This document shows positions 22,798 through 28,157 of a stretch of 64,000 nucleotides of DNA, in pieces (positions within the stretch are counted from its first letter, which is position 1; each line of letters starts with the position of its first letter). The position numbers and the translations under genes were made by a program. The notes beneath the pieces were generated by a model that saw only the letters and a list, made by a program, of their open reading frames with translations, did not search any database and had not been told where the DNA came from. Source of the DNA: Candidatus Pacearchaeota archaeon (GTDB lineage: Archaea; Nanobdellota; Nanobdellia; Pacearchaeales; GW2011-AR1). The stretch lies in NCBI GenBank assembly GCA_019659125.1, contig JAIFVX010000001.1, positions 340,135 through 404,134 of the forward strand, read 5' to 3'.

Positions 22798-23111
22798 CCA
22801 ACCATTCTCATAATAGGAGAGACTTCTGATTCCGGTTCAGGCGATGATCCCGAAAGATCTTCAAGAAGTTTTTTCTCAGGTCGCATGTACCTTTCAATCT
22901 TTTCGGTATAATTGGAAAAGCGAACGTTTTGTCCATCATCTTGATGCACTATGTAATGATCAGTATGTTTGGAAGAAAGGATACCTTCAACGACACCTTT
23001 ATCAGAAGTGACTCGTACACGACGCCCATTATAGGTTTGGATAAGAGATGCTATCCGTTCAATACCTCTTCCTTCAAACTCAATGACCTCATAACCATCG
23101 CCCATAGACAA
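22794..23111 (-). CDS. Hypothetical protein (possible Sm/SH3-like barrel)
   Basis: RVRVxxxxGxVEGIL...YIV pattern; TTTAAAA about 27 nt upstream. Confidence 0.5.
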   Translation of the reverse strand: MSMGDGYEVIEFEGRGIERIASLIQTYNGRRVRVTSDKGVVEGILSSKHTDHYIVHQDDGQNVRFSNYTEKIERYMRPEKKLLEDLSGSSPEPESEVSPIMRMVG

Positions 23112-23182
23112 AAAAGTTAAACGCTCCTTTTAAAGATGTGTTACCACTAGATAGAACCCGAGCGCAAGGCCTTGCACAAAAA

Positions 23183-24193
23183 CTAGTTCTCTTTATGTGC
23201 AACGTAATTTTTGTCACAAAAATCAAAATCAATTTTAATGCCTGATTCGAAGATTTCCTGAACCAGACAACAGATATTATGCACGAGGCACTTCAAAAGA
23301 ACCTCATTCTTCTGTCCTTGAATGTTTCTGCAACGCAAGAACTCACCAAGACGTGTCTTAATCATCGCAAAGGTGCTTTCCACATTGCTTCTCCTATGGT
23401 AGAACCTATCGAACTCTGCCCGATTCTCATTGAAGTACTTATACATGTGATTCCAGAGAGGAGCATTCTTATTGCTATGTGCTGAATTGATCTTAAAGGG
23501 AATGAACGGTAGAAAATCCAAGGCTTGAGCAATCTGCAAGTTCTTTGTACTGAGATATGCCTTATCTGCCGAATAGCGTTTAACATTAAAGTTAGCTACG
23601 GTCTGTTGGACAAGTCTAGGGAATTCAGGAGAGTCACCTGAAAAGCCTTCAGTTACTTCAACAGATGTAATGACGTTCGTCTTTGTACCGATAGAGACAT
23701 GAGCCTTAACATAGTTCCTCCAGAGCTTCTCAGGATTCTCATGCTGACCGAATCGTATCTTCATCCAGCGTTCATACTGATAACAACCAAAACCACTACT
23801 ATCAACAGCGAAGTCTGTTTCTAGCTCCTTGAGAGGCATAGCTGAGATGGTAATGAACTTCTTGAGCAACTGTTCTACCACGTGGTCATTCATGAACACA
23901 AGGAGTGAATTGAAATGCGGAACCTTCTGAATGTAGCCTGCTTCCTGTGCATGTTTCATGTCAGAGCTGATCTTACGGGCAGAGAAGTTAGAATAGACCT
24001 TCAAACAGGCACAGAACAGCAAATCCTTCAATGGAATAGGCGGACGTCCAGTTATGTGGGGCTGAGGCTTGATAAGAGAGCACAGCTCATCTAACAGCAC
24101 ATAGAACATACGTTTCTCGCTACACTTGGCACGATTATATTTTGCCCAGGTGAACTCGCTAGCAAATTGATTGATATTTGTCTGATCATCCAT
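23183..24193 (-). CDS. DDE transposase (IS4/IS5 superfamily, DDE_Tnp_1-like)
   Basis: GRP near N-terminus; FAVDSSGF (D), ADKAY (D), YHRRSNVESTFAMIK (Y-R-E-K signature). Confidence 0.9.
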   Translation of the reverse strand: MDDQTNINQFASEFTWAKYNRAKCSEKRMFYVLLDELCSLIKPQPHITGRPPIPLKDLLFCACLKVYSNFSARKISSDMKHAQEAGYIQKVPHFNSLLVFMNDHVVEQLLKKFITISAMPLKELETDFAVDSSGFGCYQYERWMKIRFGQHENPEKLWRNYVKAHVSIGTKTNVITSVEVTEGFSGDSPEFPRLVQQTVANFNVKRYSADKAYLSTKNLQIAQALDFLPFIPFKINSAHSNKNAPLWNHMYKYFNENRAEFDRFYHRRSNVESTFAMIKTRLGEFLRCRNIQGQKNEVLLKCLVHNICCLVQEIFESGIKIDFDFCDKNYVAHKEN

Positions 24194-24195
24194 TA

Positions 24196-24212
24196 TATAC
24201 CAAATAGGTATA
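24196..24212. promoter_or_regulatory. Palindromic operator TATACC-N5-GGTATA, copy 1 (between TATA box and transposase ATG)
   Basis: TATACCaaataGGTATA, perfect 6-bp arms. Confidence 0.6.
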
Positions 24213-24242
24213 CAATAGTATTTAAGTATTATTGTGAAATGA

Positions 24243-24259
24243 TATACCTAATCGATATA
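24243..24259. promoter_or_regulatory. Palindromic operator, copy 2
   Basis: TATACCtaatcGaTATA, one mismatch. Confidence 0.5.
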
Positions 24260-24334
24260 CTATCTTTAAACATATCCTTTAATTATATATAATACTAGAT
24301 ATATATTTAAATAGTATGGAAATCTTTAATAAGA

Positions 24335-24523
24335 ATGGGTCAGAATAATAGCCCTGTGAAAAAAGAGGGGTTTGGTGAAAAAGCGTGGATCATAGGAAAC
24401 CGTTGTTATCGTTGTGAACATAAATGGGTTCCCAGAGATTTTAACGAACCACCAGAGATTTGCCCTTCATGTAAATCCCCCTATTGGAAAACGCCAAGAG
24501 TGCGAGGAGTTAAGAAAAAATGA
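24335..24523 (+). CDS. Small Zn-finger protein (CxxCxHxWxPR...CPxCKSPYW)
   Basis: Two CxxC pairs, basic tail; divergent from the transposase. Confidence 0.75.
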   Translation: MGQNNSPVKKEGFGEKAWIIGNRCYRCEHKWVPRDFNEPPEICPSCKSPYWKTPRVRGVKKK

Positions 24524-25152
24524 GTACTGAGATATGGTTAGAAGTTGGACAATGGACTGTTCCTCCAATATTATCAGCTATCATCGAATATAAGTTCGGT
24601 ATAATTGGGAAGATCAAAAAAGCATGGTATTGGGTGCTGAATAAGAATGCAGGATTTGAGATTGGGCTTAGTTTGAGTAAAACCAATGAATTCGAAAAGA
24701 TAAAAACGAAACTAATTGAGGAGGCACGACGAAGGTTTGGTTCTGCTCCACAAAAGAAAAATAACGCTACGAAATTAGAGTTGCAAACCGACACTTACCT
24801 GACCACGCTTAACTATCTTCAAAATAAGGAGATATATATTTCAACAACAAAAGTAGAGGCAGGAATTAGAGACTTAAAGTCTAAAGCAAGCACATTTTTA
24901 GGAATGGTGAACAAGCTTAAGAAAGATACAGGACTCCATTCTACAGAAGCCTCTCTAAAAATATTCATGCCTTTCAAATGGACATACGTCAATATAAGAA
25001 CTCCTAGGAATTTGAAGCTCACTGATTATGACATCAAATTTAATGACTCACAATTTAACTCAGTCATTAACCTAAAGATGAACAACCTCTCTATCAATGG
25101 TGAAGAGAATTCCTTGAACTATGTTCTAGACTCATTTACGGGTATGTTCTAA
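24520..25152 (+). CDS. Uncharacterised island protein A (hydrophobic N-terminus)
   Basis: 210-aa ORF, ATGA-coupled to the Zn-finger gene. Confidence 0.7.
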   Translation: MSTEIWLEVGQWTVPPILSAIIEYKFGIIGKIKKAWYWVLNKNAGFEIGLSLSKTNEFEKIKTKLIEEARRRFGSAPQKKNNATKLELQTDTYLTTLNYLQNKEIYISTTKVEAGIRDLKSKASTFLGMVNKLKKDTGLHSTEASLKIFMPFKWTYVNIRTPRNLKLTDYDIKFNDSQFNSVINLKMNNLSINGEENSLNYVLDSFTGMF

Positions 25153-25170
25153 AATACATATCTTTTAATA

Positions 25171-25187
25171 TATGCCCTATTGGTATA
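25171..25187. promoter_or_regulatory. Palindromic operator, copy 3 (between TTTTAATA box and ATG at 25191)
   Basis: TATgCCctattGGTATA, one mismatch. Confidence 0.55.
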
Positions 25188-25190
25188 GGA

Positions 25191-25958
25191 ATGGGCGTAT
25201 CTTTGAATGTATTCAAGATCAAGTCATTTGATAAGGGAAAGGTAACGAGTAGAACAATCACAATACCTCAGCAACAGACGTGGGGAGATACCGGCTACTA
25301 TGATGAGATAGGTAGCCCAAAGTCTACCCTTACTAAAATTGAAGATACAAAAGATGTAGTTTCTTTTAAGGTAAAGCACCACTCAGAAACTATAAAACGT
25401 CCTGTCAGAGTATTTTGGGGAGATTTAGAAGATAACTCCACTGAAGCATCAAATGTAAAGAAGGTCTCAAGGGAAATCCCTGGAGGGTATCAAGAGATAT
25501 TCGACTTCGTAACTGCTCTGAATCTCAAAGATCAAGAAGCATACATATTTACTAAAAACCAAGTTGCTACAAGCCTACAGAAGAGACTGAGAAAATCAGG
25601 CATTGCCACACTCGAATCTATCAAAATTGATTTATCAAAGCTCGACGACTGCCAAGAAGTCAATAACATCTGGGGAATATGGGAAGATGGAGTTGGCAAA
25701 TGCAAGAAAAAAGCGTTGTTCGGAGCGGAAATTAGCAAAGACAACCAGCATAACAAGGAAAAAGCCACCAGTTACAACCTAGAATATGAGCTTGGAAAGG
25801 AAATCATTGACCTCACAATCTCTTCTTCAGGAGGGATAAGCAGCAAATCAAAAGAGATGACTAAAGATGACTTACTAACTATCTACCGAAAACTAAAGGA
25901 GATGGGAGCCGTGACGGAAGGATCCATAGTAGCAACTCCTGTAGTTGCTGAAGAGTAA
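25191..25958 (+). CDS. Uncharacterised island protein B
   Basis: 255-aa ORF with its own TATA box and operator. Confidence 0.7.
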   Translation: MGVSLNVFKIKSFDKGKVTSRTITIPQQQTWGDTGYYDEIGSPKSTLTKIEDTKDVVSFKVKHHSETIKRPVRVFWGDLEDNSTEASNVKKVSREIPGGYQEIFDFVTALNLKDQEAYIFTKNQVATSLQKRLRKSGIATLESIKIDLSKLDDCQEVNNIWGIWEDGVGKCKKKALFGAEISKDNQHNKEKATSYNLEYELGKEIIDLTISSSGGISSKSKEMTKDDLLTIYRKLKEMGAVTEGSIVATPVVAEE

Positions 25959-26034
25959 AATGAAAAACCGAATTGGTTATAGTCTTGTCAATCCTGAAAA
26001 AACAGTTTTAGAACTAGAACTTAAAGAGTAAAGA

Positions 26035-27300
26035 TTATTGTTTCAGTAAAAATTGTGTGCTAATCTGTTCAGTAGGAATATCTTTTTCAGTTGGTAAGTA
26101 TATCTGAACAGGTATTTTTAATCCTTTTAGATGTTTAACCATCATAGGACCTATTTGAGCCCATGATAAATTACCTAAACCGCAACCTAATGCAGGAAGA
26201 GCTATAGACTTAATTCCTAGTGACTCATAATTATCTTTAAACCATAGCAAACCTTTTTCAATTCCCACAGGATCAGAATCAAATCTCCAATGATTTTTTG
26301 TAGGAAAAAGCAAAAACCATGTTGGCTCTTTATTATCGATATAATCGACACTTAAGATATCATTTATCGATGATTCTCTTTTGTATAGTACTGGAACCCC
26401 CATCTTAAGCTCTCCTCTTTTACATATGTCTTGATAGTATACAAATACATCTGGAAACTGATATTTTGCTCTAGAAGCAAGCCCTTTACCCATTATTCCC
26501 ACCGTATTTACACTAATAGTCAGAGTTTGCATTTTAGAAAAGAACATATCTCCTTCAATGATTGAAATGTTTCCAATAATATTCTTAATTTCTCCTTGGA
26601 AAAACAAACTAGGCTCTTTAATGATACTCTCTTTGTTTACTTCATCCCCTAAAAGCGACTCTACTTTCTTTTTCACTTTGTCATTTGCTACATAAATAGA
26701 GGTAATGTATTCTGGAGGAATTTTCTGAGGGACTAAGGTTTCAGCCATTATTTTTCTCTTAGAATCACCGACAGCTGTCCACCAATCAGAGTCTATCTCT
26801 TCTTTTATAGATTCTAAAACTTCTTTCAGCTGAGATTTGGGGAAAATATCCGTACTGAAACTTGCTGCATTTCCATTAGTTATTTTAACTCCAGGTAAAC
26901 CAGTTACATTAGGCTTTAAACCCAACACCACTACATTTTCTACACCATAATTGGTGATTATATTCCATAACATTGGATTTCTAGCTTTAAAGTATAGATT
27001 TGCATAATCCCAAAGAGTCTTTTCTCCTTCGACCTTTTTTTGCCTCCTTAATTCCATTACGTCTGGATTTGAAATCATTTCTGGCTTTAATTTCAATCTT
27101 TCAACTTCATTATGAGAATATATCCCTCGAGTCAAGACTTCTTTCAAGTTTTTTACATGTACAATGTACTGAAGTTCTCTTAATCTCATGCCGGTTGTAG
27201 CATTTATAATTATATAAGGATATTGATTCCAATTAGCAATTCTTTGGGATGCTTTAATCATATCCTCATAATCTCCGTTTTCAATTAGTTTTTGTGACAT
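26035..27300 (-). CDS. darTG: DarT (DUF4433, DNA ADP-ribosyltransferase) - DarG macrodomain fusion
   Basis: DarT motifs YIVHVKNL, YANLYFKARNPML, TNGNAAS, KIMAETLVP (catalytic E); macro motifs EGDMF, VNTVGIMGKGLA, FPTKNHWR, SIALPALGCGLG. Confidence 0.88.
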   Translation of the reverse strand: MSQKLIENGDYEDMIKASQRIANWNQYPYIIINATTGMRLRELQYIVHVKNLKEVLTRGIYSHNEVERLKLKPEMISNPDVMELRRQKKVEGEKTLWDYANLYFKARNPMLWNIITNYGVENVVVLGLKPNVTGLPGVKITNGNAASFSTDIFPKSQLKEVLESIKEEIDSDWWTAVGDSKRKIMAETLVPQKIPPEYITSIYVANDKVKKKVESLLGDEVNKESIIKEPSLFFQGEIKNIIGNISIIEGDMFFSKMQTLTISVNTVGIMGKGLASRAKYQFPDVFVYYQDICKRGELKMGVPVLYKRESSINDILSVDYIDNKEPTWFLLFPTKNHWRFDSDPVGIEKGLLWFKDNYESLGIKSIALPALGCGLGNLSWAQIGPMMVKHLKGLKIPVQIYLPTEKDIPTEQISTQFLLKQ

Positions 27301-27374
27301 TCTCGTTCCCCTTATCTATACTCCACCACATACATCGCCCATTTTCCACCCTTTCTGTGCACGAACCTGGCGTT

Positions 27375-28157
27375 TTACCCTGCTATGCCAGTTATGATGC
27401 AAAGCCCGAGCGCAAGAGCCACTAATAATGCATAAAGTCCGAACCATCGCAAGTTCTTCCTTGAACTGCCGACTATTTTGAGCAAGATATGTATTGTTGC
27501 AAGGCCTACTATAAAAGAGACAAGTGTTGCCCACAAAAGATGGGGCGGCAACGTATTATTGCCAATCTCTAGAATGCCTGCTCCAAAAATGATGGGGATC
27601 GCCATAAGAAAGGAGAACCTAACGGCCTGCTTCTCATCCAATCCGAGCAACAACCCTGAAGCAATAGTCGTCCCACTCCTTGAGATGCCTGGAAGCAGCG
27701 CCAGTGTTTGTGAACATCCTATCAAGAAAGCTTGCTTAAATCCAGTCTGTTTCGTGCTCTTAAAATCAAGACTTGCAATGAAAAGCACGAGAGCTGTAAT
27801 AGCAAACCCCATGGCTGCAATAGCAAGATTATTGATGATGGATTCCACAAAATGCCTGAAGATATATCCTACAACGGCTGCGGGAATGGTTGCGACAATA
27901 AGAAGAAATCCCATTCTTGCCTTGCTGCTTTTCCACTTTCCCTTCAAGATATCCTCAATGATGTCTACAATGTCCTTTCCGAAATAGACGAACACTGCCA
28001 TCAGAGTTCCAAAATGAAGGGCAACATCAAACTGGAGCGTGTTGGGATAGTCAAGAAGATAAGAAACAAGTACCAAATGCCCCTTGCTTGAGATAGGAAA
28101 CCACTCAGCAATGCCCTGGACAATTGCCAGGATAAACTCGGCAATAACGCTGTTCAT
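27375..28157 (-). CDS. uppP: Undecaprenyl-diphosphate phosphatase (BacA/UppP)
   Basis: QGIAEWFPISSxGH, LHFGT, PGISRSG motifs. Confidence 0.92.
   Translation of the reverse strand: MNSVIAEFILAIVQGIAEWFPISSKGHLVLVSYLLDYPNTLQFDVALHFGTLMAVFVYFGKDIVDIIEDILKGKWKSSKARMGFLLIVATIPAAVVGYIFRHFVESIINNLAIAAMGFAITALVLFIASLDFKSTKQTGFKQAFLIGCSQTLALLPGISRSGTTIASGLLLGLDEKQAVRFSFLMAIPIIFGAGILEIGNNTLPPHLLWATLVSFIVGLATIHILLKIVGSSRKNLRWFGLYALLVALALGLCIITGIAG

Follow-up and report, generated by a model that had tools for sequence, protein, structure and literature searches.

The window analysed here is a 64,000-nucleotide stretch of contig JAIFVX010000001.1 (positions 340,135 to 404,134 of the forward strand, assembly GCA_019659125.1) from a Candidatus Pacearchaeota archaeon. 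It contains a minus-strand gene in which a DarT-type ADP-ribosyltransferase and a DarG-type macrodomain are joined in a single polypeptide. This gene is almost certainly an intact member of the single-chain DarTG family, with PDB entry 7OMU as its type structure. It lies together with a candidate insertion sequence (IS) and three further open reading frames (ORFs) on an inserted island (Table 1). As a whole, the locus is best explained, at somewhat better than even confidence, as an intact single-chain DarTG that was horizontally acquired and serves as a one-protein toxin-antitoxin or abortive-infection defence module.

The single-chain DarTG gene

The frame is open over 421 codons without internal stops, and translation probably starts at its internal methionine M38, with the first 37 codons left untranslated. 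Close homologues, which are 383-397 amino acids (aa) long (383-436 aa for the 120 best), start at the M38 equivalent with MRLRE[LF]QYIVH. The coding sequence (CDS) was delimited on the basis of these homologue starts, the 384-aa call for this gene in the source genome, and a TATA-like decamer, CTTATATAAT, upstream of the M38 codon. The same decamer is found at the identical distance upstream of a 70%-identical homologue (locus L094). Its position suggests a leaderless or short-leader mRNA, with the decamer as the putative promoter element. Residue numbers refer to the 384-aa protein, and 37 is added for numbering in the 421-aa ORF.

Table 1. Features of the island and of the fused gene (window coordinates)
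Feature	Position	Strand	Remarks
Inserted island, 4.6 kb	22798..27374	.	Between the AlaRS stop (22797) and the BacA stop (27375); holds the IS, three ORFs without family and the DarTG gene
Candidate IS	23117..24282	-	Imperfect 21-nt inverted repeats around the transposase; AlaRS-proximal end of the island; single-copy
DDE transposase gene, 336 aa	23183..24193	-	Pfam DDE_Tnp_1, E=5e-16; PHROG transposase
Three co-oriented ORFs	24335..25958	+	62 aa (CxxC zinc ribbon), 210 aa and 255 aa; convergent with the DarTG gene
Open frame, 421 codons	26035..27300	-	
Single-chain DarTG CDS, probable	26035..27189	-	384 aa; start M38 of the 421-aa ORF, ATG at 27189; stop 26035-26037
5' extension of the frame, 37 codons	27190..27300	-	Probably untranslated promoter/leader; absent from all homologues; holds the TATA-like box
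TATA-like box	27209..27218	-	20-29 nt upstream of the M38 ATG
DarT-type ADP-ribosyltransferase domain	26599..27168	-	Residues 8-197; full-length PF14487
DarT key codon Y8	27166-27168	-	Codon checked
DarT key codon H11	27157-27159	-	Codon checked
DarT key codon R48	27046-27048	-	Codon checked
DarT key codon Y66	26992-26994	-	Codon checked
DarT key codon M73	26971-26973	-	Codon checked
DarT key codon N107	26869-26871	-	Codon checked
DarT key codon E150	26740-26742	-	Codon checked
Short conserved linker	26569..26598	-	Includes the family-invariant Phe-Phe; joins the domains in a fixed arrangement
DarG/TARG1-type macrodomain	26077..26568	-	Residues 208-371; PADLOC and NCBIfam DarG; alignment to 5M31/5M3I
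Macrodomain key codon N228	26506-26508	-	
Macrodomain key codon K298, catalytic	26296-26298	-	
Macrodomain Gly loop G335-G339	26173-26187	-	

Pfam matches the fused protein to DarT (PF14487) over ORF residues 45-234 and model positions 2-201 of 201 (E=1.1e-38), and to Macro (PF01661) over ORF residues 264-382 (E=4e-6). Both the in-frame fusion described in the initial annotation and the assignment of its N-terminal half to DarT, now made by hidden Markov model search, are borne out. The PADLOC DarT model is also matched. The DarG models of PADLOC (positions 2-150 of 329, ORF residues 245-408, E=4e-44) and NCBIfam (positions 1-154 of 338) match in their macrodomain part only, and the chain terminates 13 residues past the macrodomain. 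The C-terminal DarT-binding domain of DarG is therefore absent, in agreement with what had been read from the sequence at the outset. The NCBIfam scores lie under the equivalog cut-offs (89.7 vs 150 bits for DarT, 140.6 vs 250 bits for DarG), which makes the fused protein related but not equivalent to canonical DarT and DarG.

Among PDB entries 7OMU matches best; this 406-residue chain was released on 2021-06-23 under the title 'Thermosipho africanus DarTG in complex with ADP-ribose'. It aligns to ORF residues 38-419 (E=8e-113; E=1.7e-178 in a profile search) with 48% identity overall, 37% in the DarT half and 62% in the macrodomain half. An AlphaFold (AF2) model of the fused protein has a predicted local distance difference test (pLDDT) score of 89.7 and a predicted template modelling (pTM) score of 0.86, and 7OMU is its top Foldseek match over the whole chain (TM 0.93/0.95, root-mean-square deviation 1.9 A over 382 columns). 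The model superposes on 7OMU as one body, suggesting that the relative placement of the two domains is conserved. Linker residues F196 and F197 are invariant across the family, and residues 191-210 are modelled with a pLDDT of 91-95.

Residue roles are taken from PMC11543638 and PMC5179494, and conservation was counted over 191 distinct family members. The PDB chains are offset by +1 relative to the published numbering, as confirmed by E160, H119 and N104 falling on the expected letters. Three motifs singled out in the initial annotation each align to a catalytic residue in solved structures. The Glu of MAETLV (E150) aligns to E160 of Thermus DarT2, the ADP-ribosyltransferase (ART) glutamate, which is Ala in the crystallised mutants; the first Arg of ELRRQKK (R48) to Thermus DarT2 R51, which has a role in proton abstraction; and the Lys of FPTK (K298) to the catalytic K80 of T. 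aquaticus DarG. Y66 and M73 correspond to Y71 (nicotinamide stacking) and M78 (oxocarbenium stabilisation) of Thermus DarT2, and N228 and G335-G339 to N22 (substrate positioning) and the ligand-binding loop G117-G121 of T. aquaticus DarG. M73, K298, N228 and the Gly loop are present in 191/191 members, E150 in 189/191 (one of the two exceptions being the engineered 7OMU mutant) and R48 in 185/191.

A His-to-Tyr change in a further motif was also flagged early. In QYIVH, Y8 replaces H13 of Thermus and H17 of DarT1, which bonds the 2'-OH of the adenine-proximal ribose of NAD+ (PMC11543638); the second His (H11) is retained. The change is real but not peculiar to this gene, since Y8 is found in 188/188 aligned members, 7OMU included. 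The macrodomain differs from stand-alone DarG by a fusion-specific insertion of 16-26 residues, which carries a net negative charge in 191/191 members (median -4); the copy here spans residues 272-290 and reads ESSINDILSVDYIDNKEPT. All elements of the family signature (the Tyr-Tyr-Glu triad, the Arg, the Met, GNAAS, the macrodomain Asn, Lys and Gly loop, and the acidic insertion) are present in this protein and near-invariant in the 191. The writer and eraser centres are intact and, judging from the alignment, both are under strong purifying selection.

The Asn of GNAAS was considered as a sign of guanine specificity and rejected. It aligns with DarT1 N104 and with H119 of Thermus DarT2, and the thymidine-specific M. 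tuberculosis DarT (7YK3, SDGNAAAS) has the same Asn. Since it is found in both guanine-specific DarT1 and thymidine-specific M. tuberculosis DarT, this base-contacting residue is not diagnostic of the target base.

Full-length relatives occur in at least 506 genomes in a scan of one genome per species. The carriers among the matches listed belong to Chloroflexota, Planctomycetota, Acidobacteriota, Cyanobacteriota, Ignavibacteriota, WOR-3, Aquificota, Elusimicrobiota and other phyla, and the archaeal ones to Bathyarchaeota, Nitrososphaerota and Nitrosopumilus. A library clustered at 50% identity holds a few dozen representatives with the full-length architecture (73 matches at E<=1e-30). The fused family is compact and well conserved. 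The architecture was already known, solved, widespread and present in archaeal database records, and the fusion is not the unusual object for which it was first taken: a relative was crystallised in 2021. Six other proteins of 441-610 aa (P0296, P0299, P0300, P0305, P0306 and P0317) have the fusion-type macrodomain at the C-terminus and are matched in two stretches; they may represent further architectures, with extra N-terminal or internal domains beside DarT and the macrodomain.

Host genome, insertion island and transfer

The host is a Pacearchaeota archaeon, as its provisional DPANN placement had anticipated, and its genome is an 809-kb metagenome-assembled genome (MAG) in 5 contigs, 85.6% complete. 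The nearest named relatives of the flanking AlaRS (72-86% identity) are all Candidatus Pacearchaeota or Nanoarchaeota, and a TFIIE-alpha gene lies nearby. A same-genus genome, G001, has the same flank order (Rhomboid, TFIIE, two small ORFs, AlaRS, BacA, a 79-aa ORF and LeuRS) with 70-92% protein identity. In G001, AlaRS and BacA lie tail-to-tail and 63 bp apart, constituting the empty site.

That the gene is an artefact (a joint created by misassembly, a contig from contaminating bacteria, or a pseudogene) is exceedingly improbable. The draft state of the MAG speaks for it. Against it, the gene lies within a 575-kb contig between Pacearchaeota AlaRS and BacA/LeuRS that are 75-86% identical to those of the same-genus genome. 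The absence of internal stops also argues against it. The initial annotation had allowed for an assembly artefact at the in-frame joint, which is excluded by a crystal structure and by hundreds of independent genomes that show the same single chain.

At 37.3% GC the island ranks among the lowest 0.7% of equally sized genome windows, and the DarTG gene is at 33.2% vs 41.3% for the genome. Its closest homologues are at 31-33% GC in contigs of 30-32% GC. Both gene and island are single-copy in the genome. Of 60 genomes from the same genus, family or order, only 1 has any locus with DarT and a macrodomain, namely a canonical two-gene DarTG. It lies in a same-family genome (L083, contig G026:C54 of 2592 bp, 562-2270 on the minus strand) and encodes a DarT of 194 aa and a DarG of 370 aa that are 36-41% identical to the fusion halves. 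Both DarTG architectures occur in this archaeal group, unless the L083 contig is mis-binned.

The borders of the candidate IS are tentative because its inverted-repeat pair is only 76% complementary. A 12-nt exact direct repeat, CCCGAGCGCAAG (23157-23168 and 27405-27416), was considered as a target-site duplication and rejected. About 0.7 chance matches of this kind are expected in 4.9 kb, the BacA C-terminus is intact compared with G001, and the right copy lies inside the BacA 3' end.

The three ORFs between the IS and the DarTG gene match no Pfam, PADLOC, NCBIfam or PHROG family. The 210-aa ORF overlaps the 62-aa ORF by 4 nt and is followed after a 38-nt gap by the 255-aa ORF. The 255-aa protein has 15 relatives in 5.8 billion proteins, and no DarT adjoins these relatives on the contigs of the two for which context was inspected. 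One of its relatives has a 251-aa ORF 37 nt upstream, and the two may form a conserved two-gene module. Another copy adjoins a DDE transposase and a DNA methylase on an archaeal contig. None of these ORFs recurs at the loci of the closest DarTG homologues, and the three appear to be island cargo independent of the DarTG gene.

A maximum-likelihood tree of 88 family members (unrooted) places the protein in a clade of seven (Shimodaira-Hasegawa-like approximate likelihood ratio test, SH-aLRT, 100) within a clade of ten (SH-aLRT 99). The ten are metagenomic proteins with 53-71% identity, and one is labelled Nanoarchaeota. The locus of one member (P0004) includes SBDS, proteasome alpha and SecY, and that of another (P0241) NAC, Sec61-beta and SerRS, both of which are archaeal chromosomal contexts. 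The locus of the 65%-identical P0007 (L098, 1-5200) consists mostly of small ORFs of 47-168 aa without families, together with a Csa3/CARF-like helix-turn-helix regulator, and might represent a virus or a mobile element from a small archaeon. Two other archaeal lineages lie apart from the clade of ten: the Nitrososphaerota clade (SH-aLRT 96), and the Bathyarchaeota sequence, whose partner in the tree is a WOR-3 bacterium. Because these three archaeal lineages are separate in the tree, the fusion appears to have entered Archaea on at least three occasions. The direction of transfer is suggested solely by the overwhelmingly bacterial membership of the family, whose distribution is sporadic, scattered over phyla and does not follow taxonomy. 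The gene reached the Pacearchaeota chromosome recently by horizontal transfer on the low-GC island, and the donor was likely an archaeon with lower GC from the same broad group, or a mobile element of such an archaeon. New at the locus are its DPANN host, a clean insertion whose empty counterpart is seen in a sister genome, and the distinct ten-member clade in low-GC archaeal contigs.

The recent arrival with an IS and unrelated cargo, in single copy, is also what would be seen for a selfish or neutral passenger, either an addiction-type module or island cargo without benefit to the host. We consider such a passenger improbable. Differential stability, on which post-segregational killing would rely, is not available to a single chain unless cleavage separates its parts; the reading frame is intact and every catalytic residue is present, and the clade is under purifying conservation across different archaeal contexts. 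The accessory and mobile character of the gene, seen in the empty G001 site, the occurrence of any DarT-macrodomain locus in only 1/60 relatives, the low GC and the adjoining IS, speaks for a defence module, as do the restriction neighbours of relatives elsewhere.

Genomic context of relatives and proposed function

Neighbours of the fusion were compared over 77 loci by calling and clustering ORFs of 70 aa or more. In this set no partner or 'switch' family was found, the non-fusion families recurring in at most 7/77 loci. The fusion, having no conserved neighbour, is therefore a stand-alone module. It had been argued from the sequence that a fused protein could not be triggered by loss of a separate antitoxin and would need another switch; the argument is reasonable, and no conserved partner gene that could act as a switch was found among those clustered. 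The switches suggested with it (proteolysis or a virus-triggered conformational change) are speculative, and so is the alternative of a reversible mark. The 118 immediate neighbours are heterogeneous and include ResIII (7), DEAD (6), N6/N4 methylase (3) and type III restriction enzyme (3) genes, as well as Mrr and PLD nucleases and PD-T4-6 kinases. One member of the ten-member clade adjoins an Mrr-type nuclease and an MmeI-type methylase.

Viral contigs (IMG/VR; L101-L179 and L100) yielded 117 relatives. About 110 of these match the macrodomain half only, over residues ~205-370 with 30-43% identity, and are stand-alone DarG-like macrodomains, consistent with published phage antitoxin mimics. 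Five contigs (L128, L134, L143, L144 and L153) match both halves with 33-42% identity. A full-length fusion is found on a single contig (L100, 1-5760, 47% identity), where it lies at the contig end. Directly after it come a type III restriction-modification pair (a Res helicase and a methylase with PKD domains) and the gene of a TnsA-like endonuclease, and a holin gene follows 2 kb later, an arrangement that resembles a defence cluster on a prophage or next to one. A virus-borne origin of the fusion was considered and set aside, since one full-length copy in 117, at a contig end beside type III restriction-modification genes, is not informative. On plasmids, only canonical two-gene DarTG systems (~30% identity) were found. 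Their matches were examined as a possible 'split' version with a macrodomain-only partner, which was rejected as the DarG proteins are 340-357 aa long and the systems are ordinary two-gene DarTG.

In the proposed defence mechanism, to which we give an even chance, the DarT half would transfer ADP-ribose from NAD+ onto bases of single-stranded DNA (ssDNA) and the macrodomain half would remove it. Because the eraser is always present 1:1 in cis, host DNA would stay essentially unmodified. During infection, viral ssDNA replication intermediates could flood the cell, or a viral factor could block or displace the macrodomain, and writing would then outrun erasing and stall DNA replication. Candidate triggers are the ssDNA substrate load, inhibition or displacement of the macrodomain, and an intramolecular element such as the acidic insertion. 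The enzymatic activity, the target base, the defence role and the trigger are all predictions. Such a one-protein module would be analogous in its logic to the fused toxin-antitoxin CapRel.

The tight coupling of the two centres may also be taken to indicate a different kind of killing. With writer and eraser locked together, each round of writing and erasing would convert one NAD+ into nicotinamide and free ADP-ribose, and when viral ssDNA is abundant the protein could act as an NADase, depleting NAD+ in the infected cell. In that case the effector would not be the DNA mark, and no separate switch would be needed. This futile cycle would be consistent with the essentially invariant catalytic centres, with the conserved and confidently modelled linker and a domain arrangement as in the crystal structure, and with the lack of a conserved partner or sensor gene in the 77 loci. 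It is nevertheless unlikely, since characterised DarT enzymes are described as sequence-specific, not high-turnover, and the cycle would run on ssDNA at host replication forks too.

A writer and an eraser in one chain would equally suit a steady-state mark, and the protein may place a physiological, reversible mark on DNA that tunes host replication or growth, as proposed for M. tuberculosis DarTG. PMC7689832 reports that depletion of DarG in M. tuberculosis triggers a DNA-damage response, and many copies of the fusion elsewhere lie among housekeeping genes. Such a role is distinctly improbable for a gene that is accessory, being absent from the same-genus genome and from 59/60 relatives, and that is compositionally foreign, beside an IS, and distributed over phyla without regard to taxonomy.

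The macrodomain is better conserved than the DarT half (column conservation 0.75 vs 0.58, in line with the 62% vs 37% identity to 7OMU). Together with the family-wide His-to-Tyr change and the many stand-alone DarG-like macrodomains on viral contigs, this may suggest an eraser-dominant protein, in which an attenuated DarT half delivers the macrodomain to ssDNA and protects against ADP-ribosylating toxins of viruses, plasmids or neighbours. We regard this as highly unlikely. The ART Glu, the Arg, the Met and the second Tyr are as invariant as the macrodomain Lys, which is hard to explain if catalysis is dispensable, and the Tyr hydroxyl can still bond the ribose 2'-OH.

Several observations weigh against the defence module itself. 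Most flanking genes of relatives are housekeeping genes, and the defence-island signal is modest. The Tyr in place of the NAD+-ribose-binding His throughout the family possibly means an attenuated or altered transferase. By bit score, the DarT half appears about equally distant from the characterised DarT1 and DarT2 subfamilies (56.6 for DarT2 7OMV, 46.5 for DarT1 8BAQ and 45.6 for M. tuberculosis DarT 7YK3). We know of no virus of this archaeon. No characterisation of an archaeal or fused DarTG was found in the literature searched. Copies from at least three archaeal lineages (the DPANN-type clade, Nitrososphaerota/Nitrosopumilus and Bathyarchaeota) were already in the databases.

A more far-reaching possibility, which we consider doubtful, is that the fused proteins are not 'DarTG minus a domain' but a mechanistically distinct third class, defined by the Tyr-Tyr-Glu transferase, the rigidly coupled eraser and the always-acidic macrodomain insertion. 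In one version, viral ssDNA would drive a write-erase futile cycle that burns NAD+. In a second, which does not exclude the first, the acidic insertion would lie in the DNA groove of DarT as a built-in DNA mimic and be displaced by a viral signal. If this were true, the DPANN-type clade would be a one-gene antiviral system circulating among ultra-small archaea.

The value of this locus alone is modest: it holds a recently imported, ordinary family member. It puts on record a DarTG-type module of a Pacearchaeota genome, extends what little is known of accessory and defence genes in DPANN archaea, and defines a clade in which the fused family appears to move among low-GC, small-genome archaea. 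The broader question, which is not specific to this gene, is how a writer and an eraser of the same mark are kept harmless together and switched on. The family is large, compact, structurally solved and free of partners, making it a good system for that question, and any member would serve.

Comparison with known systems

Canonical two-gene DarTG2 toxin-antitoxin and anti-phage systems are those of Thermus aquaticus, M. tuberculosis and enteropathogenic E. coli (EPEC) (PDB 7OMV-7ON0, 5M31, 5M3I and 7YK3). DarT ADP-ribosylates ssDNA bases (PMC5179494; PMC11543638), and canonical DarTG is a toxin-antitoxin system in which the DarG macrodomain alone reverses the modification and neutralises toxicity (PMC5179494). 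The fused protein shares with DarTG2 a homologous DarT fold with the catalytic Arg, Tyr, Met and Glu, and a homologous macrodomain with the equivalents of K80 and N22 and the Gly loop, and its domain order is the darT-darG gene order. These residues are compatible with thymidine ADP-ribosylation of ssDNA reversed by the macrodomain. It differs in being one polypeptide instead of two gene products, in lacking the C-terminal DarT-binding domain of DarG, in having Tyr at the NAD+-ribose-binding His position of the H-Y-E triad, and in the extra acidic insertion of 16-26 residues in its macrodomain.

DarTG1, in which DarT1 is paired with a NADAR antitoxin (E. coli C7, PDB 8BAQ), has the same DarT fold, and the NAAS Asn of the fused protein aligns with DarT1 N104. 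The eraser is a NADAR protein in DarTG1 and a macrodomain here, and His17 of DarT1 is missing here. No NADAR was found by Pfam in the fused protein or its scanned neighbours.

CapRelSJ46, a fused anti-phage toxin-antitoxin that senses a phage protein (PMC9712102), resembles the fused protein in logic only, an N-terminal toxin and a C-terminal neutralising domain being combined in one chain, which precludes activation by loss of a separate antitoxin. Its toxin is a RelA/SpoT-type tRNA pyrophosphokinase without homology to DarT. Neutralisation in CapRel is steric, through an antitoxin domain that also senses a capsid protein; the C-terminal domain here is predicted to be an enzyme that reverses the product. 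A Pfam search of the fused protein gave no homology to the CapRel toxSAS or pseudo-ZFD domains and matched only the DarT and Macro families.

Human TARG1 (C6orf130; PDB 4J5R and 2EEE) belongs to the same macrodomain subclass with a catalytic Lys, and it reverses DNA ADP-ribosylation made by DarT (PMC8501950). TARG1 is a stand-alone eukaryotic protein with ~21% identity.

The closest known system is T. africanus DarTG (7OMU), which has the same domain order, length, fold, Tyr-Tyr-Glu triad, linker, acidic insertion and C-terminal tail. Its host is a bacterium and that of the present gene a Pacearchaeota archaeon, and the present protein belongs to the separate ten-member clade. The crystallised protein carries an engineered Glu-to-Ala substitution, and the Glu is kept here.

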